Shown: piece after piece, positions 10,319 through 49,815 of the stretch
Position numbering within the stretch: position 1 is the first letter of the stretch
How the letters are laid out: each line of letters opens with the position of its first letter
Assembly (NCBI GenBank): GCA_032718475.1
Contig: JAUCBJ010006377.1
Location: 1-49,815, forward strand
Source: Nemertoderma westbladi
Taxonomy: Eukaryota; Animalia; Xenacoelomorpha
Direction of reading: 5' to 3'
Length of the DNA stretch: 49,815 nt
Notes under the pieces: model-generated
The model's input: the letters and a program-made list of their open reading frames with translations, nothing else
The model's database searches: none
What the model was told of the DNA's origin: nothing
Made by a program: the position numbers and the translations under genes

Positions 10319-10564
10319 ATATTAATATTGTATATAAATTTTGAGTTAGTTTGTATTTAATCATAATAAAACTATAATATATTAAACATGTGGTCAATTA
10401 GAACACAATCAGAAAATAACCACTGAATTATAAATAGTCTATTAGCACACACAACCTGCGTCAGTTCACATTTTGGCATTCTGATCTTCTTACTGTCCAA
10501 TCAACTAACTCGATCTGTTTCTATGAGTCTACAATTCTTCTTCAGAACTTCTATGAAGGATGAT

Positions 10565-11585: not shown

Positions 11586-11640
11586 TGTTTGTTGTCAATC
11601 TGTATAGTTGCGTGACTTTGTGTGCAACGCAACAACTTAC

Positions 11641-12783
11641 CTAATATGTTCAGCTTGGCTGTGGCTTTCAATGTCGCTGAAAAACGTGACAACATTGTCT
11701 TCCGTTGTAAAGATCTTGGAAGTCATATCGACGGATAACTGCGAACCACATTGGCAAATCTAACAAGTTTGTTATAGGTGGAACTACCCTTCTCTAGAAA
11801 CTTGGACATCGAAAAAGGGAAATGAGACACAATTTTGGAGCCGTCCAAATGCCAATCTGACTTCATTTCAGAGCTTTCAAATTGGGAATCAGATACAATG
11901 TCGGAGCTGTCCAATTGGGAATCAGATACAATGTCGGAGCTGTCCAATTGGGAATCAGATACAATGTCGGAGCTGCCCTATAGGGAATCAGATACAATGT
12001 CGGAGCTGTCCAATTGGGAATCAGATACAATGTCGGAGCTGTCCAATTGGGAATCAGATACAATGTCGGAGCTGTCCTATAGGGAATCAGATACAATGTC
12101 GGAGCTATCCAATTGGGAATCAGATACAATGTCGGAGCTGTCCAATTGGGAATCAGATACAATGTTGGAGCTGTCCAATTGGGAATCAGAAACAATGTCG
12201 GAGCTGTCCAATTGGGAATCAGAAATAATTTCGCCAATATCTGAATTAGATGTATCCGTTGAAAAACTTATATCTGAGTTAGTTGTATCTGGAGACCAAG
12301 ATTTATCTGAGTAATTTTCCTCTGATGACGAGCTGAAAATATCTTCATTGACTTCAGGTAACGTGTTTATATATTGTTGGGTTAGTTTCGGTGCCACGCT
12401 TTCCGCTAGATGGGGTGATATTGTTGACTCGGATGGCATTGATGACACCCGTTGGTTTATTAACATTTCTTCTTTGATATCAATTCTTGTCAACTGAACA
12501 GAGACAGGTTTGATACGGTTATCTTCTAATGTTAGACGCAGAGAAAGTTTATTATTGCCAAACAAGTGCGATTTGTATCTTCGTAACTGTTTGTTATATC
12601 TACAGGAGCGGCTTTTGGAAAGCGAATGGGAAGAATGGGAAGAAGGATTGGAATAGGAGATTAGCGATCGCATCCATTCTGTGTAAGGCCAAGATGCCTC
12701 TGGTAACAAAGGTGAATTTTCTTTTACTAATTCGGAGAGGAAATATGTCTTCAGTTCTAGCCAAAGTGCCTGAAAACGTACAC
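11641..12783 (-). CDS. Multi-MADF gene exon 5; contains in-frame stops at 12077-12079, 11978-11980 and 11723-11725
   Basis: Acceptor TTCGTTTTAG, donor G|GTAAGT, phases 1-1, 1143 bp. Starts VRFQALWLELKTYF..ASWPYTEWMRSL and ends FANVVRSYPSI*LPRS..AKLNIL. Confidence 0.7.
11868..12226. repeat. 33-bp coding minisatellite (DSSDIVSDSQL on the - strand), about 11 copies
   Basis: TCGGAGCTGTCCAATTGGGAATCAGATACAATG units; two variant units contain CCTATAGG. Confidence 0.95.
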
Positions 12784-13080
12784 CTAAAACGAAATGTGCC
12801 CAAATAGAATGGAAAACGAAAGACAAATTATGAATTACTAAGAACGTAATGGAATGTGTCTAAATGATACTGCAATGTCTAAAAAAGCACAGCTGTGGAT
12901 GACTTTAATACGGAGCAATATTCATTACTTCTTTGCCTTACAGGCTTGCACTCGGCAGGCACAAAAGATTTGCCATACTGCACGCACTTGTACACTCCTG
13001 ACCTACGAAAAGATTAAGCGGTATGTCCGCGCCATGGCGCAGTGGTCTACTATGAAACATAACGGGCGGGTGTTGAATAA

Positions 13081-13307
13081 CAACGAAATATAGGGTTTAA
13101 CATCGGCAAGGTACATTATATTAAATTCAAAACAAACGTTATCGCCCTACCGGGCTGCTATTTTAAAATTAGTACGTACGTTTTTAATTAAACCTGAGGG
13201 CGATAACGTTTGTTTGAAATTTAATATAATTAAATATTTTTTTTAATATTAATGATTTTAATTTAATATAATTTTCCGTGCTGGTGTTTAGACACTATAT
13301 TTCGTTG
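13081..13307. mobile_element. Fold-back (palindromic) MITE-like element in an intron
   Basis: CAACGAAATATAG..AAACAAACGTTATCGCCCT is inverted against AGGGCGATAACGTTTGTTT..CTATATTTCGTTG. Confidence 0.6.
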
Positions 13308-13463
13308 CTAGACATTGTTAGAACATCGTATGATTAACAATATTATCTTTATCTAATAACAAACAATATAGCATATTTATAAACTACAGTAGATAAATAC
13401 TTATATATATATATATACTTACATCCTATATATACACTATATCCATATACTGTATATACTTAC

Positions 13464-13826
13464 AAGTTATGCCAAGGATTGATGAAGCTTTGTTAATGGC
13501 ACATTCTTTGAGACGCTTGGAGCTGCTTTTCCATATTGCAGGATATTTTTGAGCGATATTAATGAACCTTTGCCAACGTTTATCCAGGGTTCTTGATCTT
13601 AAAGAACACGAAAGTGGTGGCACTGATTCTAGATTGACGACATTGGAGACAGAGTTTGGGGAAGTAGGAATGGGCGGTTTACCACGATGTATTACATGGG
13701 GTTCGAGGAATCTCATTGGATCCATATATGGCCAATCAGATTGGAATCCAGGCTCGAAACGTTCCTGCTTTAACTCTTTAACGAAAGATTTGCGCATCAT
13801 CTTCCACAGCCTGAAGAAGCATTTCT
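13464..13826 (-). CDS. Multi-MADF gene exon 4
   Basis: Acceptor TTATTTTAG, donor T|GTAAGT, 363 bp, phases 1-1; KCFFRLWKMMRKSF..SDWPYMDPMRFL ... FINIAQKYPAIWKSS..ASSILGIT. Confidence 0.8.
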
Positions 13827-14689
13827 CTAAAATAATAAATTACGTTTGTTTTGTTTGAATATATTAATTATTATATTAAGTCTGAGTAATAATTAACTTG
13901 AGGCACACATGATCAGTGATCATCCCTTTAAATACACAGTAGTAACTGTCAACAATTAACCAATAGAGCAACTGCTCAACTTCATTTTGCCATGGTACTT
14001 AATAGATCATAGAATTCTGTAAATTCAAACGAAGACAAACAATTAATAAAGAACTTGGTTGATATTAATAGGCCTAGTTGTTATGCTTCAATACATATTT
14101 TAATAAATAAATTTGCATAATAAAGACATCCTACTAATATATTAGCTCAAAAGTACTGCGACGACTACTACTACTCCAAAGTTGCAAAATTGGTAATAAT
14201 ATCTCCCTTTTATTTCTAATTCACAATGTTAATCAAAGGTCAAGCACATTATTATGATTGTTGAGTTGGAAATCAATTGCTAATTAAACCGTGCCGCCTT
14301 TGGGGGTATGATGTAGTAATATAGTTATCCTCTTTATATAAAAATCTCTGGTACGATAAGAAAATAAACCTTGGTCCGATCAAATTCATTTTTTGGTCCT
14401 TGGGAGAAAAAAATTATGTAATTTTTCTTTGCGAAGGGTTAGAGTTGTTTTCATCCAACCCCTAATAAACGGATTACATTTAATTTATTACAAGGATCAA
14501 ACACGTACTCTATGAATATAAGTCACTGCAAACAAATATTGTACTTTTCGGTTTCGGTGGCCTTTCTGCAGTACAGTTGATCGTTGGATCAACTAGAAAA
14601 CTAGAAAGCCATTGGCCGAAGGCCTCGGGTTCGGCGTCGGGCTTCCACACGCTCAAACATAAATGATCGTATGTTCTACTAAACCGTAC

Positions 14690-16813
14690 CTCCTATTCCA
14701 ATATGTCTCGCTGCATCAGCAATTGCCTTACGCCTTCGTATTTGATCAACAATATGGTTCCGTCGTTGACACCTGGTCCATATAGCAGGCCTTTCCTTCA
14801 CAGTTTCCAAAAAATGAAGCCAATTTCCTTGAATCTCCATTGGGCACCTTTCCACTTCGAACCACTTTGATGATGCCACCTCACCATCATTTATCCCCAC
14901 ATTTGGTTCACTACAATTGTTTGGCAAAGCGGTGCATGGATTATAGCTTACTGGAGGAGTCCTGTGAATATGGTATAAATCATCAACATCGCAGTCATCA
15001 CCAAAATCTCCGAAAGCTTTAAAAAATCCTGAAAGCCGCATTTTATTGTCATCAGAAGCGAATGAATCACTAAAAGCAGCATGATTGCTTTCAGATGAAA
15101 CTGGCTGTGATTGATGTTTGAGAGTGTCAATAGTTGCTACATAATTATTTGTAAGTTTGAGTAAATCTCTTGGTTTAACATCAGCAGAATCATTTAGTTC
15201 CTTCGTTATTTGATGAAGCTGGTAATCTTCTTCAATGTAGCATTCTCTATTATGGCAATCATGATTAGACATAGACGTGATACAATTTTCTGTATGGATG
15301 AGTAAATCTCTTGGTTTAATATCAGCATATCGATTAAGTATTTTCGTTATTTTATGTAGGTGGTAATCTTCTTCACAGTGGCATTCTTTGGGAACTATAC
15401 TTCTCATGGAAAAATTTGTAAATTCGCAAGTATTATTATCACATTGTATTGGACATTCAGTTTCTTCACAATGTAGCAAAATATCATCCAGAGATACCTG
15501 TTGTGAATCAGTCCTCTTGTACTTAGAGTCATAATTTGTATCTGATCCCTGAACTTCATTTTCATTCAGTTTTGATAGTTGAACATTGAGGTGTTGAAGT
15601 TCCATTAGTTGACGACTAATTGCCTTGGATTGTGTTTTCATTCTTAGGTGATTATTATTAGTTTCTGTTTGTTGCTGTTTATTTATTGTTGTATTCCTTA
15701 CCGGTACCATTGTATGTTGGTCTATCATAGTAATTTGTGGCAATGGTATACTGTTGTCAATGGTTGGTTGTACTTGTGGAAATTGTATAGTGTTGTTAAT
15801 GGTTGGTTGTACTTGTTGCGATGGTATAGTGTTGTTAATGGTTGGTTGTGTTTGTGGCAATGGCATGTTGTTAATGGTGGGTTGTATTTGTGGCAATGGT
15901 ATACTGTTGTCAAGGGTTAGTTGTACTTGTTGCGATGGTATAGTGTTGTTAATGGTTGGTTGTACTTGTGGAAATGGTATAGTATTGTTAATGGTTGGTT
16001 GTGTTTGTGGCAATGGTATGTTGTTAATGGTGGGTTGTACTTGTGGCAATGGTATACTGTTGCCAATGGTTGGTTGTACTTGTGGAAATGGTATACTGTT
16101 GTCAATGGTTGGTTGTACTTGTGGAAATGGTATAGTGTTGTTAATGGTTGGTTGTACTTGTGGAAATGGTATAGTGTTGTTAATGGTTGGTTGTATTAGT
16201 GGCAATGGTATAATGATTGGTTGCAGTTGTGGCAATGGTATATCGTTGTTACTAGCTGGTTGAATTTGCAAGAACGGGATGTGGTTGTTACTAGCTGGTT
16301 GTATTGGCAACAATGGTATATTGCTGTATCTGATTGGTTTTGTTTGTAACAATTTGATATTAGTGTTAGTGATTGGTTGCTTTTCTATCAATGGGATAAT
16401 GTTGTTATTGATTCGTTGTGTCTTAGGCAGCTTTTCTATCAATGGGATAATGTTGTTATTGATTGGTTGTGTCTTAGGCAATGTGATAATGTTGTTACTG
16501 ATTGGTTGCCTCTGTGGAATTTCCATCAATGGGATAATGCTGTTACTCATTGGTTTCATCTGTGGCAATGTGGTAATGTTGTTACTGACTGGTTGGACTG
16601 GAATACTCGATTGAGTCAAAGGCATGTAGTGATTACTTGGTAATTGAGTTGTCAAACGATTGTTGCCAGGTGGATATATATCGGGATCCAAGGGAATATG
16701 CATCATCTCTAACATTAGGGCCCAAGTGGAAGATTGATTGGTTTCATTCATTTTATTTAACTCCATGCGATAGCGCTGTTGTAAAGCAGTCCACACATCT
16801 GTAAATTGTTTTC
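14690..16813 (-). CDS. Multi-MADF gene exon 3 (long Q/P/I/N-rich repetitive linker)
   Basis: Acceptor GTCTTTCAG, donor G|GTACGG, 2124 bp, phases 1-1; KQFTDVWTALQQRYRMEL ... FLETVKERPAIW..AARHIGIG; contains 36-39-bp coding repeats (QVQPTINNTIPFP). Confidence 0.8.
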
Positions 16814-18400: not shown

Positions 18401-18505
18401 TTAATTCAAGCAAATGCAGTGCAAGTACAGTAATATCAAAGTAAACATACCCCATAGCATGACCTACTATATTTTAAGAGTTAAATAAACCATTAATTTA
18501 CTTAC

Positions 18506-19432
18506 CAGTCATTCCAAGAGCCGATGCCGCAGCTCTTACTGCCGCTTTCCTGCGTTTATTATAATGGGATAATTGCCATAGAGCAGGGTAGCGTTTAACA
18601 ACTGGGAAATAAGAGTTAATTAAATACAAATTTGAGGAAATTTCTACATCATTACAGGTTGTAAGTCCATTAGAAATCGCACTTATCAAATTCAATTGAT
18701 TGCTGTAACTGTTCATCCATGGCATATGTGATTCATTGGCAACCGCCTGGTGTACAGTACTGGTTCCCTTAGTACCGGATTGTGAAGAACAAGTTGATTC
18801 AATTTCAAACTGTTTCTGAGATGAAATGTCAGCTCTGAGTTGGTTGCTATTAGAATAGCTAAGGTCCCCAGTACTGCCTTCATCATGGAATATATATTGA
18901 GATAAATTCAAACTGCCATAAGGGTCAACTTCATTACCATTGGTTGAACTGCAAGTGCGGGGGTTGGTTGGTTCCTCCGTATGTATCTCATAATTCGCAT
19001 TTTTGGGGACAATGCTTTCAATATAACAATCATTCTCTTCAAATTGTCCATTTTTGGGGACAATACTTTCAATATAACAATCATTATCTTCAAATTCAGT
19101 ACTTGGTTCAACAACAAATGCATCACCTATTTCATTAGCTTCAATTATTTCAACATCATTAGTGGTTTCATGTAGGTCTCCATTATTGCAAACTGAATAT
19201 GGGTTTAAATAATTGGATGTAGTAGATCCACCTAAATCATTTGTGGATGAAGATTTTCGTATTTGAGAGCTTTTAGTTATGATGTAAGGATCCAAGAATT
19301 TCATGCGGATATTTTTTGGATTATGTAGATATTGTTGGACATCATCTTCTGTTGCTTTACTTCTGCGAAGGATATGGAGTACACGGGTATACCTTTTTCG
19401 TAGTCTTTTCCACCTTAATTTAATGTCGCTAC
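18506..19432 (-). CDS. Multi-MADF gene exon 2
   Basis: Acceptor TTTTTTAG, donor G|GTAAGT, 927 bp, phases 1-1; SDIKLRWKRLRKRYTR..MKFLDPYI ... FPVVKRYPALWQLS..AASALGMT. Confidence 0.8.
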
Positions 19433-20094
19433 CTAAAAAAGGAAAACAAGGTTACCTTTTAAAATTAATCGAAGACAGTCATTGATCCTCTGAGGGAAAA
19501 GCATCAGCTATTTTCTAAACCGTAATGAAATGAGATACATAATTTACCTTAAAGTAGCCTTACTAAGATTTCAATGTTTGAAAATATAAAATATGTCTTA
19601 AAACAGACACTATCCAGGTATTCTTGGATCCAGAGGTTCCAGAACCTTTACGAAATTTATTTTTCTAAATTGTATACCAAATTGTAATTGCTTTATTAAT
19701 CTTGTTCTGGTTCCTTGTATATCAGCAAAATATCAGTAAATGTAAAACTAGATAGTAATAAAACACTAGCTACCATAACAGAATATCAGTAAGGTTCTAG
19801 AACATTCACCAATATAAAAAAAACACTCAAAAACAATATTACTTTTTTTTTCATAAAATACTACCTACTGTAGTAAAGAAACACCAGGTACCATAAAAAA
19901 AATAGCTATACTAAGATTGTAAAACATTCACTGATATCAAAAAATCATTCATTAGGCACTACTTGGCAAGGAACTAGGACTAGAAGATTCATCTAGAACA
20001 TTCACTAATATAAAAAAAAAACTCTCAAATACACAAAAAAATATCAATTTTCAAAAATGTTCATACAAGCTATACTAGTGCCAAAATTAGAAAT

Positions 20095-20560: not shown

Positions 20561-21097
20561 AAAAGCATGCAGACAATTAAGATTCAATAGTCTATTGTAT
20601 TAATTGGTAGCTAATTAATTATTTTTGTAAAAAAATTATTATTATAATAATAATAATTTAAAAATTATTTTTAAAAAAATGAATAGGCAATATATTCTAG
20701 AACATTTAAAAAAAGTAACAAAAACTAGCCACCATAAAAAATTTCGCGGGGTGTGTGCCCAAAACACAGTACTGCAACACTTTAGATTCTATAATTTTAC
20801 TGATTTTACTATAATATATTTAATATTTATTTTTTATATAATTTTTACTAGCTTTATTATATAATGTTATTTATATACATATTATATGTACATTATATAT
20901 ATATCATCAGTAAAACTAGAGCTCTTTGGTAATACTGTGTTTGGTATTTCCTACACAATTTTACTCAGCCAACCTGATTTTCATATACATTTTTTTTATT
21001 TCCGGTATTGTTCTACAGTAAAAACCAACATAAGATGACGCAAGTCAAGATTGTAACTTATTTAGCTACTCGAGATCAATAAAATTATTATTAAATA

Positions 21098-22237
21098 ATG
21101 GCATTGTTATCAGTGTCCGTATTCTGTCGACATGGTGCAAGGACACCAATAAACTATTTTGAATGCATTGGCGAAAAACAAATTCCCTGGGACTTTCATT
21201 CATTATTTACAAACTGTGACTATTACACATCACAATGTCATGTGGTGGAAATAGACCCAAGGGAGTACAAGAGCACAGCAATGAGAGAAAACAAAGTGGT
21301 ACTTGACTGTATTTCTGTGGCAGCGCCTTATGACATTGTCAATGAATCTAAGCCTTTACCATGTGGAGCCTACTGCGGTCAGCTCACACGTATAGGGCAC
21401 AAGATGGCCTACAAACTCGGAAAGCGTTTACGAGCGGATTACACTGTTGACATGGGTAAAGCATTGCGACCCCAACGAATGTATGTGCGATCAACACACT
21501 ATGCGAGAAATATTTCATCAGCTTCCTGCATTGTAGCAGGTTTATTAGGATGCGACACCTCAATCCCGATTTATGTTGCATCACCAAATTTTGATGGATT
21601 CCATAACAATAATAATTCCTATGTATCCTCATTTCCATCATTTCATTCCGCGAAACACAAGAAGGAATACGAAAGTGATTATGCTCGGATTGTCCCACAA
21701 TTGTTTTGCCGGGAAGCATTAAAAGACAACGAAGACATTTTCTCCCAGCTCAGAGATCTTATGTCATGTAGGATGATACATAATCTCCCTATTCCTACGA
21801 TATTACGTGACAACCAATCAGTCGTTGAGAGATGGGCCTTACACTCTTATCTCGCAGATGAATCAATGGGAACTAAATACCGAGATTACTTACGGTATAG
21901 TGCTGGGCGTATATTGCATGAACTTATGTTCAACTTAACCAATCAAGAAGATACAAGTGTATATAATTTTTACATTTACGTTACCCATGACACAACACTT
22001 ATACCAATGATGCAGGCCATAGGTATTCCTTGCAATCAGTGGCCAAGGTATTGTGAAAGTATTATCGTAGAATTATATGAGAATACAGATGGTAAAAGAT
22101 TTGTTCTCATTCGTCATAATATGTCATATATTTGCCTAAAAGGTCAATCGAAAACAGAAATTCCACTTAAAACATTTGTTGACATTTTAAAAAGATACAA
22201 AGCATCCCATTCAGATTGGATAGAATTGAAAACTTAA
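21098..22237 (+). CDS. Histidine acid phosphatase (branch 2), ACP6/lysophosphatidic acid phosphatase-like; intronless CDS
   Basis: 379-aa ORF with RHGARTP, GQLTRIG..LGKRLR..Y, YVRST..RNISSA, THDTTL and WPRY motifs. Confidence 0.9.
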   Translation: MALLSVSVFCRHGARTPINYFECIGEKQIPWDFHSLFTNCDYYTSQCHVVEIDPREYKSTAMRENKVVLDCISVAAPYDIVNESKPLPCGAYCGQLTRIGHKMAYKLGKRLRADYTVDMGKALRPQRMYVRSTHYARNISSASCIVAGLLGCDTSIPIYVASPNFDGFHNNNNSYVSSFPSFHSAKHKKEYESDYARIVPQLFCREALKDNEDIFSQLRDLMSCRMIHNLPIPTILRDNQSVVERWALHSYLADESMGTKYRDYLRYSAGRILHELMFNLTNQEDTSVYNFYIYVTHDTTLIPMMQAIGIPCNQWPRYCESIIVELYENTDGKRFVLIRHNMSYICLKGQSKTEIPLKTFVDILKRYKASHSDWIELKT

Positions 22238-25739: not shown

Positions 25740-27830
25740 ATATGTTCAATGAAATAAGGAAACTAAGAGGCAATTTAACTGGGTTGAGTCACATTGTTGA
25801 TGGGGAAACATCGGGAGAAGGTATATCAAATAAATAATATATGTGTATAAATATATGCGGATTTGTATAACCAGGGATATACTACGGATTTCATAATTTA
25901 GAGTCTCGGATTAAGAATGGCATTGAAAACCTCCCCATGGGTGAAAGTCAGTGGGTAACTCCAGGTCTCGTTGCAGCAGCTATCGCCAAATTGAAAACTG
26001 GTAAATTGGATGTCTCTGGACAGTTCATTTTGGATTGTATTATAAATGCGCCTCTGAAGTTTGCGCAATTTCTTTCAGTTCTCTTTAATGCCAGTCTGGT
26101 CCACGGGTCGGTTCCTAAATTTATTTTAATTACATCACTAGTTTCGCTGGTTAAGGACAGTTTAGGTGATATCTCCAGGTCATCAAACTACAGAGTGATT
26201 GCCATTTCGTCGTTAATTCTGAAGGTCTTTGAGTGGATCATGGTTCTCTCGCAACATGATTCCTTACAAGTAGACGAAATGCAATTTTTCTTCCTGAAGG
26301 ATTCGAGTACATCAATGTGTACATGGGCCGCAAGTGAAGTTGTCTTGTTTTATTCGAGGTTCTCCACTCCTGTTTATGGATGTTTTATGGACTTGTCGAA
26401 GGCATTTGATATGGTTGACTGGGTTTCACTATTCCTACAACTATTAAAAAAAGGTTTCCCACCATTATTTATTAGAACTCTATTGTCTATATATAGGGGG
26501 CAATCATGTAGGGTGAAGTGGGGAGTCATGTCTCTGACATTTTTGGGATATCTAATGGAGTCCAGCAAGGTTCAGTCACCAGCCCTGTCCTCTTCTGCGT
26601 TATACTAAATTTGCTAGTACAGAAACTTCGAGACTCACAGGTGAGGTGTCATATTGGTTCTAGAGATACTTCGGTATTTTTATATAGATTAATTTAAAAC
26701 TTACACAGCATTGGGTAAAATATTAATATGATATATATAAAAAATAATAAAATAAATAAATAAATATCAGTAGGCTAAAAGTAAGTGGAGTCATCTAATA
26801 ATTATCTCAGAGGTCGAGACCACGCAGACCCGCCCCGTTGCCAAAGCCGAGAGATCGCCATGGACGACGACCACCCCTTAGGCAGAGCGAGCTGGACCTG
26901 AGGGCGAATTGGTGCCTCTTACGGACTCCTCCAAGTACCCCAACAAAGCCACACTCCCGCATTCCTTCACTCCGAGTCACCAGTGAGTCCGTGAGGTGCC
27001 GGATAAAAATCTCCATCTCTCTATGCCAGATGCTGTCAGTGGTACCAACAAGGGGTGTAAAGGACATCCTTCTTGCTCCGCACACGCTGTTGTAGTGCTG
27101 TTTCTTTGCGCAGACCCGTTGTTCAAGCAGGGAGGTCACTGATCGATAGGTTTGAGCATAAGAGCGGACGTCAGCGTTAATAACAGCGATGTCAAAAGAT
27201 GCCACCCTCTGATTGACCCAAATCCCCCGAGCGACCAGGTCCGCACGAATTTCTCCAACAGCTACTCCTTGGTGATCAAGGTGACCTGTCTCTAGTCACC
27301 TCCCTCTCTACTGCTGATCCACCAACAACAGCAGCTATCATATTTATATATATTATATGATATATGATATTATATTATATATATTTTTATATATGCTGAT
27401 GATATTTTATTATTGTGCCCATCTATAATTAGTTCATGGTTCATTTATGCACAGTTTTTGTGAAGGAATATAATATGACGTTTAGTACTAATAGGCCTAC
27501 TGATCCAAATAAAAGTAAAACTAAATGCATTCCTTTTGGGTTTATTTGGAAGCCTCCAATGGATAATATTTCGTTAAATAATGCAGATTTACCTTGGGTG
27601 CAACAGATATTAATAATTGGGCAACACTTTTCATTATACTGGTTTGTTTTCATGTAGTATTTTAATAAAAATGGGTCAATTTATTTGTAAACTAAGTAGT
27701 TTAAGACAAGAATTTCATTAGCTACATCCTAGCTCTTTGTCAGAATTACAATGTATCTATGCAATATCATTTTATGCTAGTTGTCTTTGGGATAAAGAAT
27801 GTACTCGTTGTTTACATCCTGCAAATTGTA
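25740..27830 (+). mobile_element. Decayed APE-type LINE reverse transcriptase, split by an insertion
   Basis: ORF 25937..26608 has SNYRVIAISSLILKVFE and GCFMDLSKAFDMV; a frameshifted NGVQQGSVTSP follows; GIFI|YADDILLLCP rejoins across 26687-27381; NKSKTKCI lies downstream. Confidence 0.85.
26687..27381 (-). mobile_element. 5'-truncated restriction-like-endonuclease (CRE-like) non-LTR retrotransposon
   Basis: RADLVARGIW..RVASFDIAVINAD..SY..AKKQHY..FTPLV motif of RLE domains; 12-bp TSD TATTTTTATATA at 26675-26686 and 27382-27393. Confidence 0.75.
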
Positions 27831-32692: not shown

Positions 32693-33017
32693 TTAATTTA
32701 ATCATTTAAAATTATATTCATAGTAAAATACAACACCCAAGCTCTTAACCCAAACTATGCCCAACCTCCTAACTCTGAACAACGCCCATCCACCTAACCC
32801 TGCTATTGTATTTGGAGTGAAAATGGCACAATGTGCATGACTTGAGTATAATACTACAGACTCAGTCAGTATCAGTATCAGTATACACGTGATTAATATA
32901 TATTTCAATATGTGTCATTATACTTTTAATTCATTAATAATAATTTGCTTTTAAAAAATGACAGAAAGGTTTTACAATTATTTACTACAATTATTGTTGA
33001 TCCTGACCCATCACAAA

Positions 33018-33070
33018 TGGTGGCAATACGTACGTTTCAGCCTATCAGGCCTCATCAGTAGCGCTAACCA
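33018..33070 (-). ncRNA. Type I hammerhead ribozyme, minimal, with an imperfect stem I
   Basis: The minus strand reads GCTA-CTGATGA-GGCCT gat AGGCT-GAAA-CGTACG-TA^TTGC. The core is intact with a GUA site and a palindromic stem III; there is one mismatch in proximal stem I and distal TGGT/ACCA pairing. Confidence 0.7.
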
Positions 33071-33299
33071 GTTCAGCCACTTGTCCCTGACATTCACTCT
33101 CTCACCTAATCCACTTCTATTGAACAGGCAGTCTTAAGTTGCATATCCTATCTCTAACAGCGGACCTACCGGCCTCAAGTATGTTAGAGTGAAACAGGAG
33201 GGAAGTACAAATAAATCAAAATTCAGCTCGAGTATTGCTGCCAGGTGATATTAAATAAATAAATTGGAGTTGAGCTGTTAATGCAACTGTAATTAAAGA

Positions 33300-34027: not shown

Positions 34028-36060
34028 CTACCTATCCTTCTTATGTCCTCCCACCGCGCATCTGTGGCATAACCCAAATCTCCCTGTATAGGCTAATCGA
34101 TCTTCTTTCAGCAGTGCCTGCCACTGGTTGCAATCAATGGTCTTATGCGTCATATCCCATATATGCACATGCTTTCTATGTAGCTGGCACCTGTGGTTTG
34201 GATTATAACGCTCTCTGTATAGCGTCTTGCGTATTTTGTCCAGGTCCAAGTCGGATGGTTTGTTGTTTTGGTTGCACATACCCTCGTCAGGGGTGTTGTT
34301 TCCTCCATAGCCACCACAGTTGTTCTGTGGACTAGAAATCCCCACAACGGTTGCATATGGCAACGATTGCCTCACCCTCGGAAGTGCATCTGCAGCTCTG
34401 TGTTCCAGTTTAGGTCAGCTATATTCCACTTTCGGTACCTTGCCCAGACTCTCCTCGCTGTACACTGGATCCGTTATCAACTCGGCTTCGTAGTTAAGGA
34501 AGTTTGACATCTCTTCCAACCCTGGCTCTGCACTCTTCTTTTCTCAAGTGGTGAAAGCGATCTTCCTCCATTTATTCCTCAACCATATCGGTAGTGCCTG
34601 CGCTATGCTTGTGATATTACTTGAAGCATTAAGCTCGTATGGTGCTTCTAGCATTTTTAAAACTATTAATGCCTTTTCTACTTTGTTGGAAAAGGCTTTG
34701 ATACTAACAGAGTTATCCGCGAGTCCGCCTGATGTTATTCCCTTTAAGGTTTGTCGGATAATCTTCGCTGGATGGCCAAATTCCCTATCCAGAGCTCTCC
34801 ATGCTGTTGTAAATCCTCCTTCGATTCCCTGATATTGCCTCACAATATCATAGCAGCTCTATTCTAGTTTTTAGCGCGTCGATGAGTGTTGCCATTCCCA
34901 TTGCTTGAATTTCCAGCGCGCTCAACGGTACGGATGCAGGCTCCTTTGGTGTTGACTGTGCTTCACCTCTCAGGTTCGTCGACTTTCCCTGTGTGGGATA
35001 TATCATTGGGGGCAATATGGTCCCCTCCATATCTCGGTGTCGCATGATTTGTAGTTCAACTAGATTTGTTGCGATTTTTATTTTTGGTCGTGCGTATTGC
35101 GGATACAGTAATGGGGGAATGTCACCCTGCCCCCCCCCCCCCCCCCCACTGGTGTTATATTCTGCACTGGGGTAGATGTCATTATATTGGGGCCCATACA
35201 CTTATCTGCAATACCCCCCCCCCCCCCTCCCCTGGGTAGATATTATATCCTTGCATATTATAGTCATACTGGTGTGCAGGTACCAGTATTGGCCTAGCAG
35301 GTTCCTGCCTACTCACCAGTATGTAAGCCGCGACCTCCGGGTTTAATCCTGGCATTCATGCTCCTATCACCTACACTATCTCTCCCAGCATGGCCTATAG
35401 TATGTTCAGTAAGACCTACAGTATGTCCTGTGGTCTGAATGTGCTCCTCGCGATCGAAGTTTAATCTTCTCGAATATTCCGAGAACTTCCATATCGTGAC
35501 TACCATATCGTCGATTGGCAGCTACATTCTGACGGGAAGTTTCCCTTCGATCCCTTCTTCTACCTTCCTCCCCGTTCCGGTATCCCTGTACCTGTAACCT
35601 GTAACCTGTCTCTGTACCCCTCTCCCGGTGTGTGATATATTTCACCAGGTTGTTTTTCTCCGGGGCGATGGCAATTTCCCGAAGTACAACCCCACCGGCC
35701 ATCTCTCTCTACTTCGACTATCAACGGTGCACTGTCTGGCCTATCTCAATATCTCCAGTTGCCCGTAGCAACATTTCCTCGCTCATCTCTATCGTCCTCC
35801 TCGCGTCCTCCACTCCCGGTGTTATACCTACGTTCATGAGATTTAGTGTTGACCTCCTGGATGAACTCTACCATTCTTCTTCCGTTTTCCAAATGGGTTC
35901 GATGTTCCTTCGTTTGGCCGCTTGCGGTGTGAACGTTTTTCCCTTTACCCGGATGTACGGCCTCGTAGATATTCGCTGCCCTTCTACTCTCCTCTGTCGT
36001 CGGGTGCCACGGTTCACTTGACTCACCGCGCGCATTTCCCACCAACGCTTGCTGGGCATC
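34028..36060 (-). mobile_element. BEL/Pao LTR retrotransposon gag remnant
   Basis: GFTTAWRALDREFGHPAKIIRQTL..LPIWLRNKW (DUF1759-like) followed by zinc knuckles CQLH..HKTIDC and LCHRCAVGGH; frameshifted; no LTRs recognised. Confidence 0.7.
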
Positions 36061-39625: not shown

Positions 39626-39766
39626 ATGTCGGACGAGGTCAGTAAATCGGCGTCAGCGGTTCCCGGTGGCGACACGATATTCGGAAAGATTATCCGTAAG
39701 GAAATTCCAGCTGATATAATCCACGAGGACGATAAATGTTTGGCGTTCAACGATGTTAGCCCACAA
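39626..39766 (+). CDS. HINT1: Histidine triad nucleotide-binding protein (HINT1/HINT2 family), exon 2
   Basis: [41 protein letters not shown]; acceptor CCCCAG immediately before the ATG; donor CAA|GTTAGT. HINT1 versus HINT2 orthology is not resolved. Confidence 0.9.
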
Positions 39767-42718
39767 GTTAGTAGATTTATATCAACGATGTTAGCCCACA
39801 AGTTAGTAGATTTATATCAACGAAGTTAGCTCACAAGTTAGTAGATTTATATCAACGATGTTAGCCCACAAGTTAGTAGATTTATATCAACGGTGTTAGC
39901 CCACAAGTTAGTAGATTTATATCAACGATGTTAGCCCACAAGTTAGTAGATTTATATCAACGGTGTTAGCCCACAAGTTAGTAGATTTATATCAACGATG
40001 TTAGCCCACAAGTTAGTAGATTTATATCAACGATGTTAGCCCACAAGTTAGTAGATTTATATCAACGATGTTAGCCCACAAGTTAGTAGATTTATATCAA
40101 CGATGTTAGCCCACAAGTTAGTAGATTTATATCAACGATGTTAGCCCACAAGTTAGTAGATTTATATCAACGATGTTAGCCCACAAGTTTGTAGATTTAT
40201 ATCAACGGTGTTAGCCCACAAGTTGGTAGATTTATATCAACGGTGTTAGCCCACAAGTTAGTAGATTTATATCAACGATGTTAGCCCACAAGTTAGTAGA
40301 TTTATATCAACGATGTTAACCCACAAGTTAGTAGATTTATATCAACGATGTTAGCCCACAAGTTAGTAGATTTATATCAACGATGTTAGCCCACAAGTTA
40401 GTAGATTTATATCAACGATGTTAGCCCACAAGTTAGTAGATTTATATCAACGATGTTAGCCCACAAGTTAGTAGATTTATATCAACGATGTTAGCCCACA
40501 AGTTAGTAGATTTATATCAACGATGTTAGCCCACAAGTTAGTAGATTTATATCAACGATGTTAGCCCACAAGTTAGTAGATTTATATCAACGATGTTAAC
40601 CCACAAGTTAGTAGATTTATATCAACGATGTTAGCCCACAAGTTAGTAGATTTATATCAACGATGTTAACCCACAAGTTAGTAGATTTATATCAACGATG
40701 TTAGCCCACAAGTTAGTAGATTTATATCAACGATGTTAACCCACAAGTTAGTAGATTTATATCAACGATGTTAACCCACAAGTTAGTAGATTTATATCAA
40801 CGATGTTAGCCCACAAGTTAGTAGATTTATATCAACGATGTTAGCCCACAAGTTAGTAGATTTATATCAACGATGTTAGCCCACAAGTTAGTAGATTTAT
40901 ATCAACGATGTTAGCCCACAAGTTAGTAGATTTATATCAACGATGTTAGCCCACAAGTTAGTAGATTTATATCAACGATCTTTGCCCACAAGTTAGTAGT
41001 TTTATATCAACGATGTTAGCCCACAAGTTAGTAGATTTATATCAACGATGTTAGCCCACAAGTTAGTAGATTTATATCAACGATGTTAGCCCACAAGTTA
41101 GTAGATTTATATCAACGATGTTAGCCCACAAGTTAGTAGATTTATATCAACGATGTTAGCCCACAAGTTAGTAGATTTATATCAACGATCTTTGCCCACA
41201 AGTTAGTAGTTTTATATCAACGATGTTAGCCCACAAGTTAGTAGATTTATATCAACGATGTTAGCCCACAAGTTAGTAGATTTATATCAACGATGTTAGC
41301 TCACAAGTTAGTAGATTTATATCAACGGTGTTAGCCCACAAGTTAGTAGATTTATATCAACGATGTTAACCCACAAGTTAGTAGATTTATATCAACGATG
41401 TTAGCCCACAAGTTAGTAGATTTATATCAACGATGTTAGCCCACAAGTTAGTAGATTTATATCAACGATCTTTGCCCACAAGTTAGTAGTTTTATATCAA
41501 CGATGTTAGCCCACAAGTTAGTAGATTTATATCAACGATGTTAGCCCACAAGTTAGTAGATTTATATCAACGATGTTAGCCCACAAGTTAGTAGATTTAT
41601 ATCAACGATGTTAGCCCACAAGTTAGTAGATTTATATCAACGATGTTAGCCCACAAGTTAGTAGATTTATATCAACGATGTTAGCCCACAAGTTAGTAGA
41701 TTTATATCAACGATGTTAGCCCACAAGTTAGTAGATTTATATCAACGATGTTAGCCCACAAGTTAGTAGATTTATATCAACGATGTTAGCCCACAAGTTA
41801 GTAGATTTATATCAACGATGTTAGCCCACAAGTTAGTAGATTTATATCAACGATGTTAGCCCACAAGTTAGTAGATTTATATCAACGATGTTAACCCACA
41901 AGTTAGTAGATTTATATCAACGATGTTAGCCCACAAGTTAGTAGATTTATATCAACGATGTTAGCCCACAAGTTAGTAGATTTATATCAACGATCTTTGC
42001 CCACAAGTTAGTAGTTTTATATCAACGATGTTAGCCCACAAGTTAGTAGATTTATATCAACGATGTTAGCCCACAAGTTAGTAGATTTATATCAACGATG
42101 TTAGCCCACAAGTTAGTAGATTTATATCAACGATGTTAGCCCACAAGTTAGTAGATTTATATCAACGATGTTAGCCCACAAGTTAGTAGATTTATATCAA
42201 CGATCTTTGCCCACAAGTTAGTAGTTTTATATCAACGATGTTAGCCCACAAGTTAGTAGATTTATATCAACGATGTTAGCCCACAAGTTAGTAGATTTAT
42301 ATCAACGATGTTAGCTCACAAGTTAGTAGATTTATATCAACGGTGTTAGCCCACAAGTTAGTAGATTTATATCAACGATGTTAGCCCACAAGTTAGTAGA
42401 TTTATATCAACGATCTTTGCCCACAAGTTAGTAGATTTATATCAACGATCTTTGCCCACAAGTTAGTAGATTTATATCAACGATGTTAGCCCACAAGTTA
42501 GTAGATTTATATCAACGATCTTTGCCCACAAGTTAGTAGATTTATATCAACGATGTTAGCCCACAAGTTAGTAGATTTATATCAACGATCTTTGCCCACA
42601 AGTTAGTAGATTTATATCAACGATCTTTGCCCACAAGTTAGTAGATTTATATCAACGATGTTAGCCCACAAGTTAGTAGATTTATATCAACGATCTTTGC
42701 CCACAAGTTAGTCGATTT
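39747..42718. repeat. 35-bp tandem array, about 85 copies, spanning the HINT exon2/intron2 junction
   Basis: Unit TCAACGATGTTAGCCCACAA|GTTAGTAGATTTATA. Confidence 0.97.
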
Positions 42719-42848: not shown

Positions 42849-45004
<2,156 letters not shown>

Positions 45005-46011
45005 GTAGAGACAGCTAGGGTTTCTGTCAGGCTGTCGAGTTTCTTCTAGATTATTGGTTGTTGTACACAATATTACTTAGGTACTAATTTACATTGCTGA
45101 TCGCCATTTTAGTAACTATTTACATCACTGTGTAAAAGTTAATAGTTTGCGTTATCACCCGACAGAATTTATGTACTGAACGAACGTAGTGAGGAAGGTT
45201 TACAGAAATATATTTTAATGGTCTTTAACGCTTCATTGTGACCTTGTATATATTTTTGTTACATTGTCATCTTATCCGCGCTCAAGTGTTATCCTCGTAC
45301 AGTTGCTTCGGTAACTGTAATTTATTGCATAAAAAGCATTATACATTATAAATAAATGCATTATAATATTAATTCAATTTTATTAATTAAGAGTATTAAT
45401 TTGAGTTTTAACTAAATGACCTACATCATTCTATGCAATGCAAATGACAAAGACTACACACCGTTAAAGACCCTTGTTTATCTATGTAAACCCCCCTCGC
45501 TGCGCTCTATGTTCGGGTAGCATATATCTGTCTTACAGGTAATATCCAAGAGAGGAGAGCCTTCGGGTTACCTCTGGTCCGGTGTGTCGTGTTTGACACG
45601 TTCACCAATCACTTTTACTTACGCTGAATGTGCTACAAATAATATTGTGCGGAATACAGATACTTTGGCTTCAATTCCGAATAAATATATATATTTCCAT
45701 TAAGATTAGATGTGCAATCCATTTTGGATTTTATCCAAAATTCTACACTAAATAATGACATAGTACTCACGTCTATGGGGGAGTGAGATACCGGATACCG
45801 GTAGTTATTTTTCTCACCTTCACTTCTTTCATCTTTGTTTTTTGGTACTTGTGGTTTAATAATCAGAATTAAATACATTTAAAAAATGTGTAAATATAAT
45901 GGTTAATAGCGTATTATTATTTAATTGGAATCATAATTAATGATTGTAGATGTAGCTGATAATTAATTATGTTTGGTAATTATAATAATAGGGATTTCAC
46001 TCATCAATTTT

Positions 46012-47340
46012 TTACGATACCGAGAATTTCCTGTCATTTAGGAACTCGAATGAGACAACATTTGATTTGGCTTTTATTTTCGGCATGAGTTTCATATTTC
46101 TCAAATCGTTGTTGGTTTGAGGTTGGAGTCCCTTGTTGAGCATATTGTCTGAGACGGGTAGATCAGCTGGCAGTTCGTCTACTTCGAGGTCTGGGGTCCC
46201 CAACGCCTGGAACGGGGCGATCCGTTTACCCAATCGTCGAGCGATCGCCGCGTTAAGATCGTTGTAGACATCCCGACGTCGTTGTCTCGTACCGAGTCGG
46301 CGGGTGAACGTGGAATCGGTACGCTGACCCAGAACCGATTTTTCGCGTCCCAACGCCGCCAACATAACTGGAGCTTTCTTATTGGCTGAACCCTCATTAT
46401 CTCCTTGGTAATCTTGCGAGCTCATTTTTGATTGGTTATTGCCCTCCTGTTCAATTCTGTCAATCTCAGTATTGTGGTCGTCTTTTATTAATTCAGAATT
46501 ATTTTCTTCTGTTTGCCCGGACGTTTTTGTTTGCCATTTTTCTTGTTGCCCAAATGTTCCTATATATTCTCCGGAAGTGGTCCACAGACGCGCCGTGCAA
46601 TCAGTCGACGATGACGCAAAGTGACTTCCGTTTCCTACCCATGCGAGCCCTGATATGGCGTTGCTGTGCGCTTTCCATCCGGCTAACCTCGGCGGTTGCT
46701 TGGTAACCCGCCACGCCAGCGGAGCCACGCAGTACTCCGATATGTCCCAGACGTAGATCCATCCGGCTGTGTCCCCGACGACCAACACACTGTCGTCCTG
46801 GGTCGTAAAAACCGCGAGAATCGACTGATCCATAAAGTCGCTCCCGTAGAATCCACCGATCAGATGGCGTCGGTTAGTCACGCTCCAGAAGTTTAAATAT
46901 CCCGCGCTGCTGGACAACAGGATCGCGGATTTAGTGAATTTATTGGCGGCGCGGTGCGAGAGAAAGACGAGAACATCGACGGCGAATTGGGAGGCGTCGG
47001 CGGGGAAGGTTGGACGGGAGTAGCGGGAGACTGGGCGACTGGGAGGGCGGTCCTGGTGGCGGGAGTTGGGGCGGGAGGAACTACGGGAGTCCCGACGGAA
47101 TCCGGAACCATTCCGGTTCGCGGAACCGTTCCGCTCCCCTGTCGGATATCCGGAGCCTCTCGTACTCCCACCCATGTCGTCCGTCGACGTTCGTTCCGAA
47201 ATGTTATCGCCCGACTTTAGATTTATCTTTTTGATTGGCAGCTGCGTGTCGGTTTTCCAGACGATTATTTGTCCGTCGTAACTCCCCGTCGCGATGTACT
47301 GGTCGCATCCCGCCATACTCAGTATATCGTCTTCGTGAAG
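46012..47340 (-). CDS. WD40-repeat protein (WDR49-like), last exon
   Basis: Acceptor ATTATTTCAG, phase 0; LHEDDILSMA..IATGSYDGQIIVW, VVGDTAGWIYVWDI, WKAHSNAISGL..SSSTDCTARLWT..GEYIGTFGQ; ends in TAA. Confidence 0.85.
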   Translation of the reverse strand, partial: LHEDDILSMAGCDQYIATGSYDGQIIVWKTDTQLPIKKINLKSGDNISERTSTDDMGGSTRGSGYPTGERNGSANRNGSGFRRDSRSSSRPNSRHQDRPPSRPVSRYSRPTFPADASQFAVDVLVFLSHRAANKFTKSAILLSSSAGYLNFWSVTNRRHLIGGFYGSDFMDQSILAVFTTQDDSVLVVGDTAGWIYVWDISEYCVAPLAWRVTKQPPRLAGWKAHSNAISGLAWVGNGSHFASSSTDCTARLWTTSGEYIGTFGQQEKWQTKTSGQTEENNSELIKDDHNTEIDRIEQEGNNQSKMSSQDYQGDNEGSANKKAPVMLAALGREKSVLGQRTDSTFTRRLGTRQRRRDVYNDLNAAIARRLGKRIAPFQALGTPDLEVDELPADLPVSDNMLNKGLQPQTNNDLRNMKLMPKIKAKSNVVSFEFLNDRKFSVS

Positions 47341-47846
47341 CTGAAATAATTAATTATTATTTTTATTATTTAGGATCTTTTACGAATAATTTCAGTATCA
47401 ATAAACAGCTCTTCCAATTTCGTTCTGTGGTGTGTCACCGAATAACCTAACAACATAACCCTTTTCACCGGGACATGACAAACAGGAATCAAATCAAGGG
47501 AAATGAAACTTCCTAAAAGTCACTACATTTATTATAGGAAGAGATCTATGAGATATTAATTTCAAGAAAAATTACGCGTTTCCTAAATTTGTACACTACC
47601 CGGTTAAAAAGTACGCATGTGACGGGATTAGTCCTACAATTGCGACAATAAAAGATAAGTTATTTTCGGTAAAATAAACTTATTCGAGGTTAAGACCCCA
47701 AGATCCCTTCCTATATAATAAATGTATAATAACAAACACCTCGAAAAATACAGCTTGCCAACACATTGTTACTATCAATAATATAAATCAGGGGCTAATA
47801 AAATGGCAGCTGGCTTTGATAATAATATCCATATCTCAATAACATG

Positions 47847-47899
47847 TGGCCTAGTGGTTGTAGTCTCGACTTCCACCTCGAGGTCTCAGGTTCGAATCC
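47847..47899 (+). promoter_or_regulatory. tRNA-like internal Pol III promoter (second copy at 48256-48308)
   Basis: A box TGGCCTAGTGG (47847-47857), anticodon-like hairpin CTCGA-CTTCCACC-TCGAG, B box GGTTCGAATCC (47889-47899). Confidence 0.8.
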
Positions 47900-47950
47900 G
47901 ACACCACGCTGATGAGACCCAGTAAGGTCGAAACGCGTACGTGGTTTGGA
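47897..47950 (+). ncRNA. Type I hammerhead ribozyme, copy 1
   Basis: ACCACG-CTGATGA-GACC cagtaa GGTC-GAAA-CGCG-TA^CGTGGT, extended by TCCGA/TTGGA pairing; predicted cleavage after A47939. Confidence 0.92.
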
Positions 47951-48305
47951 GAGATATGAGATATTAATTTCAAGAAAAGTTACGCGATTCCTAAAATTTG
48001 TACACTACCCGGTTAAAAAGTACGCATGTGACGGGATTAGTCCTACAATTGCGACAATAAAAGATAAGTTATTTTCGGTAAAATAAACTTATTCGAGGTT
48101 AAGACCCCAAGATCCCTTCCTATATAATAAATGTATAATAACAAACACCTCGAAAAATACAGCTTGCCAACACATTGTTACTATCAATAATATAAATCAG
48201 GGGCTAATAAAATGGCAGCTGGCTTTGATAATAATATCCATATCTCAATAACATGTGGCCTAGTGGTTGTAGTCTCGACTTCCACCTCGAGGTCTCAGGT
48301 TCGAA

Positions 48306-48359
48306 TCCGACACCACGCTGATGAGACCCAGTAAGGTCGAAACGCGTACGTGGTTTGGA
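48306..48359 (+). ncRNA. Type I hammerhead ribozyme, copy 2
   Basis: Identical to copy 1; predicted cleavage after A48348, 409 nt downstream of the first site. Confidence 0.92.
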
Positions 48360-48787
48360 GAGATATGAGATATTAATTTCAAGAAAAGTTACGCGATTCC
48401 TAAAATTTGTACACTACCCGGTTAAAAAGTACGCATGTGATGGGATTAGTCCTACAATTGCGACAATAAAAGATAAGTTATTTTCGGTAAAATAAACTTA
48501 TTCGAGGTTAAGACCCCTAGATCCCTTCATATAATAAATGTATAATATCAAACACCTCGAAAAATACAGCTTGCCAACACATTGTTACTATCAATAAAAG
48601 TCACTAATGATTTGGAGTCTTTATATTACTAAAACTAAAAAGATTTGCATTTTTGGCACATTTATGTTAGAGAATCAAACTTTTCAGATGAATTATTTAT
48701 CAAACCTTGTTTGAAATCGGTATGTGTTTGTTATTTTGGAATGAGTTGCACCATTACAACTCTCCGAAAAGTAAAGTTAAAGTAATT

Positions 48788-48818
<31 letters not shown>

Positions 48819-48834
48819 TCCATTAACTACACTC

Positions 48835-49018
48835 CCCTGTGAAAACTTATGACTCATTTTGCTTTAAGGATGCATGCTGAGATGTGCACTTGTTACTCCC
48901 TTTAAAGCATTCGTGTCGAAACAAAAACTACCCTGTCTCCCCATGCAGGGATCGAACCCTCGACCTCCAGAGAAATGTGAATTCAAGGCAACGGATTTAA
49001 CCACAACACCACGAAGCT
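48835..49018 (-). mobile_element. tRNA-derived SINE-like element
   Basis: Minus-strand A box TGGTGTTGTGG and B box GGTTCGATCCC, followed by a T5 run; does not fold as a full tRNA. Confidence 0.55.
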
Positions 49019-49099
49019 CAGAAAATATGTAAATCTACATGTTTTACTAAATACAAATAACAAAATAATTTCGGGGGTTTATGATTATACCATGATTAC

Positions 49100-49230
49100 C
49101 TGTAGACCTTTCCAATGCAGCGACGGTTTTATAGACAACATCTCTGGGTGGTCTTCGTACTGGACTATGGTTCTATTCCAACCAACAACGGCAAGGACAC
49201 GTCTACCATCGTGGAAGAGGTCAAGAATAC
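49100..49230 (-). CDS. WDR49-like gene internal exon; not in the supplied ORF track
   Basis: CTACAG acceptor and CAG|GTAATC donor, phases 1-0; ILDLFHDGRRVLAVVGWNRTIVQYEDHPEMLSIKPSLHWKGLQ joins both neighbouring exons in frame. Confidence 0.8.
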
Positions 49231-49548
49231 CTGTAGATGGATAAATAATCTGACCCTGAGAAATATTGAAATATTTAGTTTAATTACTACTACAGAAAAT
49301 CGGAATGCTGCAGCATTGCAGCTGCATTATATATATATACTGTATTATGAATGGTGTGCCGACTTTTCGACACAATTGCGCCGCCACAACTCACTATCAC
49401 CCATGACATTTACTGGAACATCCGCAACTTCAGGGACAGTGTAATTATACCTTTTAATTTGCCTACTGTATTCCTGTTTCCAATCCTAATACACATAATA
49501 GAATTTCTAGAACTTTATGTTTTATTTTAAAATGAAGTTCTCTTCGAC

Positions 49549-49780
49549 CTGTTACTTCGCTGTTCCCAAATGGATGTAACGTCTGTAGATGTAGACCAGA
49601 ATAAGCGTGCCACACGTACAAACTACCGTCACGGGCGCCGCTAATTATCCGTCGCTTTTTATCGTCCAAAGTGATGCAAGTAATCTCTTCGTTTCCGTGA
49701 GCTTGAACGAATCGCGTGTGAATCTGTCCGGTGTCCACGTCCCATAAAGCGATCTCAGAACCGTCGCATGCTGTGACCAC
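49549..49780 (-). CDS. WDR49-like gene internal exon
   Basis: VVTACDGSEIALWDVDTG..AHGNEEITCITLD..RRIISGARDGSLYVW; acceptor TTGTCTAG, donor G|GTCGAA in phase 1. Confidence 0.8.
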
Positions 49781-49815
49781 CTAGACAAAGTCGGTTATAT
49801 TATGTATAATCCGTG

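Follow-up and report, generated by a model that had tools for sequence, protein, structure and literature searches.

The DNA analysed here contains a short tandem array of an abundant 409-nt repeat, in which a tRNA-derived head with Pol III boxes is directly followed by a type I hammerhead motif, as in the Sm-alpha design. With a probability of roughly 0.6, this array was inserted by the enzyme of a Penelope-like element (PLE) as ~1.6 units with a short 5' inversion, and was later enlarged by duplication of a unit. Judged from its sequence, the repeat probably adds a member to the Sm-alpha-type / animal non-LTR retrozyme class, and is likely mobilised by PLEs. The locus bears on the question of how animal retrozymes return to DNA, and whether circular RNAs are the templates. 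The window is the whole stretch of DNA that was analysed (49,815 nt), and positions are those of the window unless they are given as unit positions.

Structure of the tandem array

A tandem array with a period of 409 nt, 2.6 copies and 98% matches is detected by TRF at 47547-48597, in agreement with the ~2.6 near-identical tandem units described in an earlier note on this DNA. The array is bracketed by a 12-mer target-site duplication (TSD) at 47514-47525 and 48595-48606. This 12-mer occurs exactly twice in the window, which bears out the 12-bp TSD of the earlier note, and the chance of such a TSD is ~7e-5 (i.i.d., 300 placements). The first 22 nt after the left TSD belong to an inverted piece of the unit and are not forward unit sequence. 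The order at the locus is TSD, inversion, unit 16-409, (full unit), unit 1-251 and TSD, as follows.

47514..47525, unstranded: left TSD, 12 bp; its last 2 nt are common to the inverted piece
47524..47548, minus strand: inverted piece, 25 nt, unit positions ~170-196; PLE-type 5' inversion by its layout, with 2-nt microhomology at each end
47547..47939, plus strand: copy 1, unit positions 16-409; begins 15 nt past the equivalent of the hammerhead cut
47940..48348, plus strand: copy 2, full 409-nt unit between both predicted cuts
48349..48597, plus strand: copy 3, unit positions 1-251; its last 3 nt are common to the TSD
48595..48606, unstranded: right TSD, 12 bp

The sequence at 47524-47548 is identical at 23 of 25 positions, ungapped, to the reverse complement of 48518-48542 (BLAST E 0.005). 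Its local score is 36, against a maximum of 31 among 1,896 background 25-mers (0/1,896 as high), and it overlaps the TSD and the forward copy by 2 nt each. By its form and position, a 25-nt inversion that abuts the 5' TSD is a PLE hallmark. A partial tandem with an inverted 5'-truncated copy at its 5' end, which is a mark of PLE derivatives, is present at the locus. Besides the inverted piece, no further copy of the unit is found within the window. The unit has a GC content of 0.38 (38%), and its longest ATG-started frame, when the unit is read as a circle, is 40 codons, so that the unit is non-coding, as the earlier note had it.

tRNA-derived head and hammerhead motif

Each of the two complete modules consists of a head with an A box and a B box and of a hammerhead that follows it.

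47839..47908, plus strand: head of copy 1, containing an A box (47847-47857), a hairpin like an anticodon arm and a B box (47889-47899)
47897..47950, plus strand: type I hammerhead 1, predicted to cut after 47939; helix Ib/Ia pairs 47897-47908 with 47940-47950, the core spans 47909-47915, helix II 47916-47929 and the palindromic helix III 47933-47938
48256..48359, plus strand: second head and hammerhead 2, predicted to cut after 48348; A box 48256-48266 and B box 48298-48308, core starting at 48318
48072..48075, plus strand: T4 run, the sole one per unit (unit positions 133-136), possible Pol III terminator, with counterparts in copies 1 and 3

The spacing between the A box and the B box is 31 nt in both modules, and the modules are identical. 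The head aligns end to end with 22 reference tRNAs, with a z of at least 4 for 8 of the 22 and a best z of 5.5. The top alignment scores are those of Pro, His and Ser tRNAs, and Gly tRNAs are mid-table, so that the isotype is ambiguous. ARAGORN calls no complete tRNA at the head (0 genes), and the head alone gives no Rfam tRNA match. These alignments suggest that the head is tRNA-derived, though not a whole tRNA. Thus, the tRNA head of the earlier note stands as a derived head with A and B boxes, but not as a tRNA called by either program. The note had also placed the B box no more than 4 nt before the hammerhead. The B box indeed ends 3 nt ahead of helix Ia, and it also overlaps the outer part of helix I (47897-47901). 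A T4 run acts as a Pol III terminator. Because each unit contains such a run, a Pol III transcript must read through it to give a 409-nt monomer or circle. The box motifs make the unit a candidate for Pol III transcription.

The hammerhead cores start at 47909 and 48318 and the GUA sites end at 47939 and 48348, which confirms that the predicted cuts are 409 nt apart, as calculated before. Helix I has 6 bp and is extended by 5 bp that overlap the B box; helix II has 4 bp and a 6-nt loop, and helix III has 2 bp around a 2-nt loop, inside a 6-nt palindrome. A pattern of B box plus hammerhead matches 2 places in the window and none in any of 100 shuffles, and a type I structural descriptor finds just these 2 sites on either strand of the window and 0 in 100 shuffles. 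The best Rfam score is that of HH9, with 26.6 bits against a gathering score of 52 (E 6e-4), and the number of Rfam matches at gathering level in the whole window is 0. The hammerhead had been called perfect. This holds for the type I core, which is intact at two sites, but not for helix III of the monomer, with just 2 bp, nor for the Rfam score.

The minimum free energy (MFE) of the hammerhead is -12.3 kcal/mol. Helices I and II are predicted at a probability of 0.73-1.0 in two dimer-length RNA contexts, and at 0.22-0.38 in a short RNA of Pol III length (head to T4 run). The circular monomer is not predicted to be more stable than its shuffles (z -1.3; 9/100 as stable). No hammerhead core is found on the antisense strand of the element, so that no cut in the host pre-mRNA is predicted. 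With helix III being a 6-nt palindrome, cutting would occur mainly in dimers, and cleavage would hence be partial. In the available text on metazoan hammerheads, this is described as the usual type I form, which is weak in cleavage on its own and, within tandem repeats, probably works as a dimer (PMC4209133). In vitro cleavage is reported for 1/9 of the Xenopus retrozyme dimers in the accessible part of another study (10.64898/2026.07.22.740005), so that an intact motif is no guarantee of activity. The hammerhead of the 409-nt unit is predicted to be of the dimer-acting type, and self-cutting and any RNA circle are likewise predicted.

The family in public sequencing runs

The family was surveyed by aligning contigs of public sequencing runs to 47100-47955. 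X1 and X3 are DNA runs. None of the runs listed as containing the sequence is catalogued as RNA, and X6 is taken as RNA from a single spliced contig of 3,761 nt, which joins 47340 to 49100 and 49228 to 49547 with GT..AG ends; this contig indicates that X6 is RNA and that the intron is removed by splicing. The contigs that align number 2,711 in X1 and 1,089 in X3. At the listed unit places, the depths added up over all contigs, which do not equal copy numbers, are 0.7-6.7e5 in X1 (flank 23.3) and 0.5-4.2e5 in X3 (flank 5.8). The family is thus ~10^4-fold above single-copy depth in the public DNA runs, and the hammerhead is the majority state of the family at every listed place.

One unbroken contig each in X1 and X3 runs without differences from the flank through the TSD and the inversion to 47574-47576, and no empty allele is found in these two samples. 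In the 18 of 359 loose-end rows considered, the unit is left by 10 contigs of X3 behind 47782 and by 16 behind 47715, and the departing flanks are long and mutually unlike (agreement 0.44 and 0.47). Single X6 contigs leave the unit at 47783 and 47731. These loose ends map to unit positions 252-253 and about 185-201, of which the latter is an estimate of the true end, since an indel truncates the alignment of the 47715 group, whose unaligned letters start with unit sequence. The two end clusters match the forward end of the locus (251) and the outer end of the inversion (196), and the distance between the two family ends is ~55 nt among the same 18 of 359 rows. Neither cluster is found among the X1 loose ends listed. 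The departure of contigs into unlike flanks and the ~10^4-fold depth agree with the dispersed, multi-copy family that the earlier note had proposed to look for. The note had regarded the ends as permuted, but among the rows listed other copies end near unit positions ~196 and ~252, as at this locus, so that the ends look fixed. The lower depth at unit positions ~253-310 was considered as a sign that most copies lack the linker, and this reading was dropped, because alignment loss at the mismatches of the locus explains it equally.

The depth of the family in X6 is 670-15,450, against 181 for the host mRNA. The ratio of X6 depth to X1 depth is 0.003-0.03 for the family and 0.002-0.09 for neighbouring repeats, at different likeness cut-offs. 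Because this ratio is no higher for the family than for its neighbours, passive inclusion in other transcripts suffices to account for it. X6 contigs inform on neither the strand, the ends nor circles. One X6 contig of 1,831 nt spans the head and hammerhead region of the family. A loose end behind 47931 in an X6 contig reveals a transcribed sister form, in which helix III has 4 bp with a 9-nt loop and monomer cutting would be expected. X4, a run labelled as another organism (B), contains one 441-nt contig (depth 13.8) with majority alleles, no flank and a 24-nt internal duplication at 47692-47715; it was considered as a circular unitig, which was rejected, and is treated as trace material. The sediment run X7 (share 0.07) has 0 contigs on the flank stretch and gives no habitat evidence.

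Origin of the middle unit

Seven sites within unit positions 16-251 distinguish the three copies. Along these sites the odd copy is copy 1 three times and then copy 3 four times, and it is never copy 2. Copy 2 is identical to copy 3 at unit positions 40, 48 and 54 and to copy 1 at 93, 170, 181-182 and 202, and copies 1 and 2 are identical over 252-409 (0 differences). The outer copies, 1 and 3, differ at 7 sites in 236 nt. If three equal copies had mutated independently, the three chimera features would have probabilities of 0.059, 0.057 and 0.044. At position 93, the base common to copies 1 and 2 accounts for ~0.1% or less of the family depth in reads. Position 40 is not listed as differing from copy 1 in the family, which makes the base of copies 2 and 3 the minority state. 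At position 115, all three copies carry an allele below 0.1% of the family depth, and this shared rare allele suggests that the original 1.6 units came from one template. The alleles of copy 1 at 170 and 182 are also minority states in the family, so that some of the divergence between copies 1 and 3 may predate the insertion.

The best reading of this pattern is that copy 2 is a recombinant with its junction between positions 55 and 92, made once copies 1 and 3 had diverged. The insert probably consisted of ~1.6 units, with the middle unit arising later as a local duplication. A non-integer copy number can arise by such a duplication, and is not to be read as a number of rolling-circle turns. 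The earlier note had read the 2.6 copies in that way, and this reading is not supported, given the nature of copy 2, a chimera without a private change, and the clustering of the listed family ends at two positions. Its term young insertion holds in part only, given 7 differences in 236 nt between the outer copies and no empty allele in two samples.

Two other readings concern the middle unit. It may be an assembly artefact, with a real locus of 1.6 units and all else unchanged. Copy 2 has no private base and short-read contigs cannot bridge the middle unit, as an artefact would have it; the depth in X3 of the allele of copies 1 and 2 at 47623, however, is 11.7, twice the 5.82 of the flank, although the depths at other sites (0 to 30) are inconsistent. 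An artefact is considered very unlikely. The least probable reading is a single insertion of the whole array of 2.6 units, through 2.6 rolling-circle turns or from the transcript of an already diverged source array. It would explain why one pair of TSDs surrounds the whole array and why the copies are 98-100% alike. One circle, however, would give identical copies that then mutate independently, whereas non-majority states are common to copies 1 and 2 (at 93) or to copies 2 and 3 (at 40), copy 2 has no change of its own and the switch between its two partners is ordered. The source-array version retains some likelihood.

Mechanism of insertion

According to the accessible text of two studies, PLE insertions consist of partial tandems, often with an inverted 5'-truncated copy, and have an optional 30-40-bp tail (PMC8557442, PMC8969392). 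One purified PLE enzyme cuts both strands at AT-rich DNA; it starts reverse transcription at two internal RNA sites, which determine the tail, and works mainly on uncleaved RNA (PMC11167929). At the locus, the AT-rich 12-bp TSD, the passage over one uncut hammerhead and the stop 15 nt from the upstream cut position fit a PLE model. Against this model, the gap of ~55 nt between the ends exceeds the published PLE tail of 30-40 nt, and no autonomous PLE partner is found in the 16 of 49 window frames scanned. A Penelope-like helper, which the earlier note had suggested, remains the best candidate and is now backed by the 5' inversion at the locus.

The insertion may have proceeded as follows. Tandem copies would be transcribed from the Pol III boxes of the upstream unit or by read-through, with the T4 run being passed. 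The hammerheads are predicted to cut mainly as dimers, and the 6-nt palindromic helix III would leave cleavage partial. The template would most likely be a linear RNA, the 5' end of which comes from the upstream cut and which retains one uncut hammerhead. By analogy with the PLE literature, a PLE enzyme would nick AT-rich DNA on both strands, 12 nt apart, and internal starts at two preferred RNA sites would give a long forward copy from ~251 and a short inverted copy from ~196. The layout expected from these steps is TSD, inversion, 16-409, 1-251 and TSD, as is seen in the sequence. After a drift of ~1.5% per copy, an unequal crossover between 55 and 92 would have produced the middle unit.

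The partly cut linear RNA is favoured as the template over a circle. A ligated circular monomer of ~410 nt in the same family, with the same PLE helper, could be copied for 1.6 turns from a fixed internal start and the middle unit be added later, and 1.6 turns on a circle from a fixed start would give the same DNA as the linear template. Animal retrozyme RNAs accumulate as circles and a circular template is the published model, as far as the accessible portions of two papers go (PMC7229834, PMC4209133); the insert also extends across the hammerhead junction, and a rare allele is common to both outer copies. The forward part, however, stops 15 nt from the cut position, as it would at the 5' end of a cleaved linear RNA, and a random drop-off there has a chance of ~4%. 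PAc uses unprocessed linear RNA in vitro (PMC11167929), the circular monomer folds no better than its shuffles, and contig data cannot reveal circles. A circular template is on balance unlikely, while deserving serious consideration. An ordinary tRNA-derived SINE moved by a LINE, with the inversion due to twin priming and the tandem secondary, would account for the tRNA-derived head and the 12-bp TSD, and non-LTR-type reverse transcriptase fragments are present in the window as weak RVT_1 matches. Twin priming on one RNA gives an inverted piece that is contiguous with the start of the forward part. At the locus, in contrast, the inverted piece (170-196) is not contiguous with the forward start (16); moreover, the element begins elsewhere than at the head, it carries neither an A-rich nor a simple-repeat tail, and the hammerhead, as the family majority at every listed place, is foreign to this reading, which is highly improbable. 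Copying of a partly cut linear RNA by a PLE enzyme is thus retained as the preferred reading.

Relation to known elements

The assignment by the earlier note to Sm-alpha-like animal non-LTR retrozymes agrees with the sequence characteristics of the family. It has a 409-bp period, two consecutive hammerheads at -12.3 kcal/mol (below -5), no coding capacity, a GC content of 0.38 (<50%), a 12-bp TSD (>4 bp) and dispersed multiple copies, all of which characterize animal non-LTR retrozymes, and it has the tRNA-derived A and B boxes immediately ahead of the hammerhead that characterize the Sm-alpha type.

In Sm-alpha and Sj-alpha of Schistosoma, tandem repeats likewise combine a Pol III promoter with a hammerhead behind it, and Sm-alpha is present in over 10,000 copies in S. 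mansoni, according to the available text of two studies (PMC6765202, PMC2770079). The family resembles these repeats in its Pol III-type promoter and hammerhead, its tandem arrangement, its tRNA-derived origin and the location of the promoter at the 3' end of the cut monomer. It differs in that its host is another animal (the proteins of the window are at most 40% identical to named proteins), and in that the available text of the same studies does not tie Sm-alpha to PLE-type inversions or fixed internal ends.

Animal non-LTR retrozymes, as described in the accessible parts of two reports, share with the family tandem units of 150-450 bp with a type I hammerhead each, a GC content below 50%, the lack of an ORF, a TSD of more than 4 bp, at least two consecutive complete hammerheads and PLEs as proposed helpers (PMC7229834, 10.64898/2026.07.22.740005). 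They have already been proposed as PLE derivatives in the accessible part of the latter (10.64898/2026.07.22.740005). In contrast to the family, an internal tRNA-type promoter lies outside their definition, and neither 'Pol III' nor 'SINE' is mentioned in the main text of the former (PMC7229834). Cleavage and circular RNA are demonstrated in the portions available on these retrozymes, whereas both are predictions from sequence for the 409-bp family.

EN+ PLEs resemble the family, as far as the available texts describe them, in partial tandem pseudo-LTRs, an inverted 5'-truncated copy, an AT-rich target, a hammerhead in the repeat and, tentatively, two preferred ends (PMC8557442, PMC11167929, PMC4209133). 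They differ from it in that the 409-bp unit has no RT/GIY-YIG ORF and an end-to-end gap of ~55 nt rather than a tail of 30-40 nt, and in that the unit has the 'canonical' metazoan hammerhead, whereas most PLEs have the minimal form with a long helix II in the accessible text (PMC4209133).

The locus puts PLE fingerprints, namely a 5' inversion, apparently fixed internal ends and a 12-bp TSD, on an element of Sm-alpha design. No title on this family, or one that links the Sm-alpha design with PLE inversions, is found in the literature covered, which consists mostly of the main texts of open papers. The tandem design of promoter and hammerhead has been in print since Sm-alpha, and the surprise for specialists is modest. 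As a tentative generalization, which is somewhat more doubtful than not, Sm-alpha-type elements may be widespread 'Penelope-SINEs', in which a tRNA promoter is fused to a PLE-style terminal repeat; a PLE enzyme would copy them from partly cut linear RNA by starting internally, and no circle would be needed. If this is true, a ~10^4-copy family whose sister subfamilies have a short or a long helix III would offer a convenient way to test whether circles are transposition intermediates. The family is large enough for a census of its ends to test a circular against a linear template.

Host gene and neighbourhood

The array lies antisense in an intron of a WD40 gene, and the window contains a few other genes and retroelement fragments.

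47341..49099, minus strand: host intron, 1,759 nt, GT..AG, with the element antisense inside; CFAP337/WDY/EFCAB8-like WD40 gene
46012-47340, 49100-49228 and 49547-49782, minus strand: exons of the WD40 gene, borne out by the spliced X6 contig; the last exon of the gene is longer than 1.3 kb
4250-5212 (minus), 21095-22237 (plus), 13426-13839 (minus) and 18498-19451 (minus): long uninterrupted coding stretches; EMP70/TM9SF, ACP6-like phosphatase and two MADF-domain frames
6026-6913 (minus), 25871-26608 (plus) and 34544-34858 (minus): retroelement fragments; two weak RVT_1 matches and one DUF1759

The best matches of the WD40 gene are CFAP337-like, WDY-like and EFCAB8 proteins of marine invertebrates and chordates, with at most 40% identity for full-length matches. 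The ACP6-like gene has ~30% identity to ACP6. These low identities mark the host as an animal whose close relatives are not annotated. The genome looks intron-poor. The GIY-YIG family is represented in none of the 16 of 49 long window frames scanned, which contain two weak RVT_1 matches. Scans of the collection for a B box with a hammerhead give 6 metagenome loci and 1 viral locus, which are unrelated to the unit beyond the B box. Among them, hammerhead-like motifs lie directly behind a tRNA at L002:397-480 (Thr) and L003:1220-1343 (minus strand; Gln), both in tRNA clusters, and behind a B-box-like hairpin at L007:1470-1550 (minus strand) in a viral contig; all three motifs are unrelated to the element.

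A hammerhead-like core with a palindromic helix III and an A-box-like motif at 33079 is present at ~33005-33090 on the minus strand of the window, and possibly represents a decayed second family. This core (~33058, minus strand) was considered as a relative of the 409-bp unit and was rejected, because it fails the helix I test and is unrelated. A second tRNA-SINE-like repeat lies in the same intron as the array at ~48897-49015 on the minus strand, with an A-box-like motif at 49011 and a B box at 48958; its X1 depth is 7.7e4 at 48901-48933, and it adjoins a 28-nt C run at 48788-48815. Short repeats of very high copy number are located in the next intron at 49297-49428, with depths of up to 6.4e5 in X1 and up to 2.2e4 in X6. 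Large minisatellites occupy 39747-42718 (35 bp x 85 at 97%) and 43113-45005 (41 bp x 46 at 91%).
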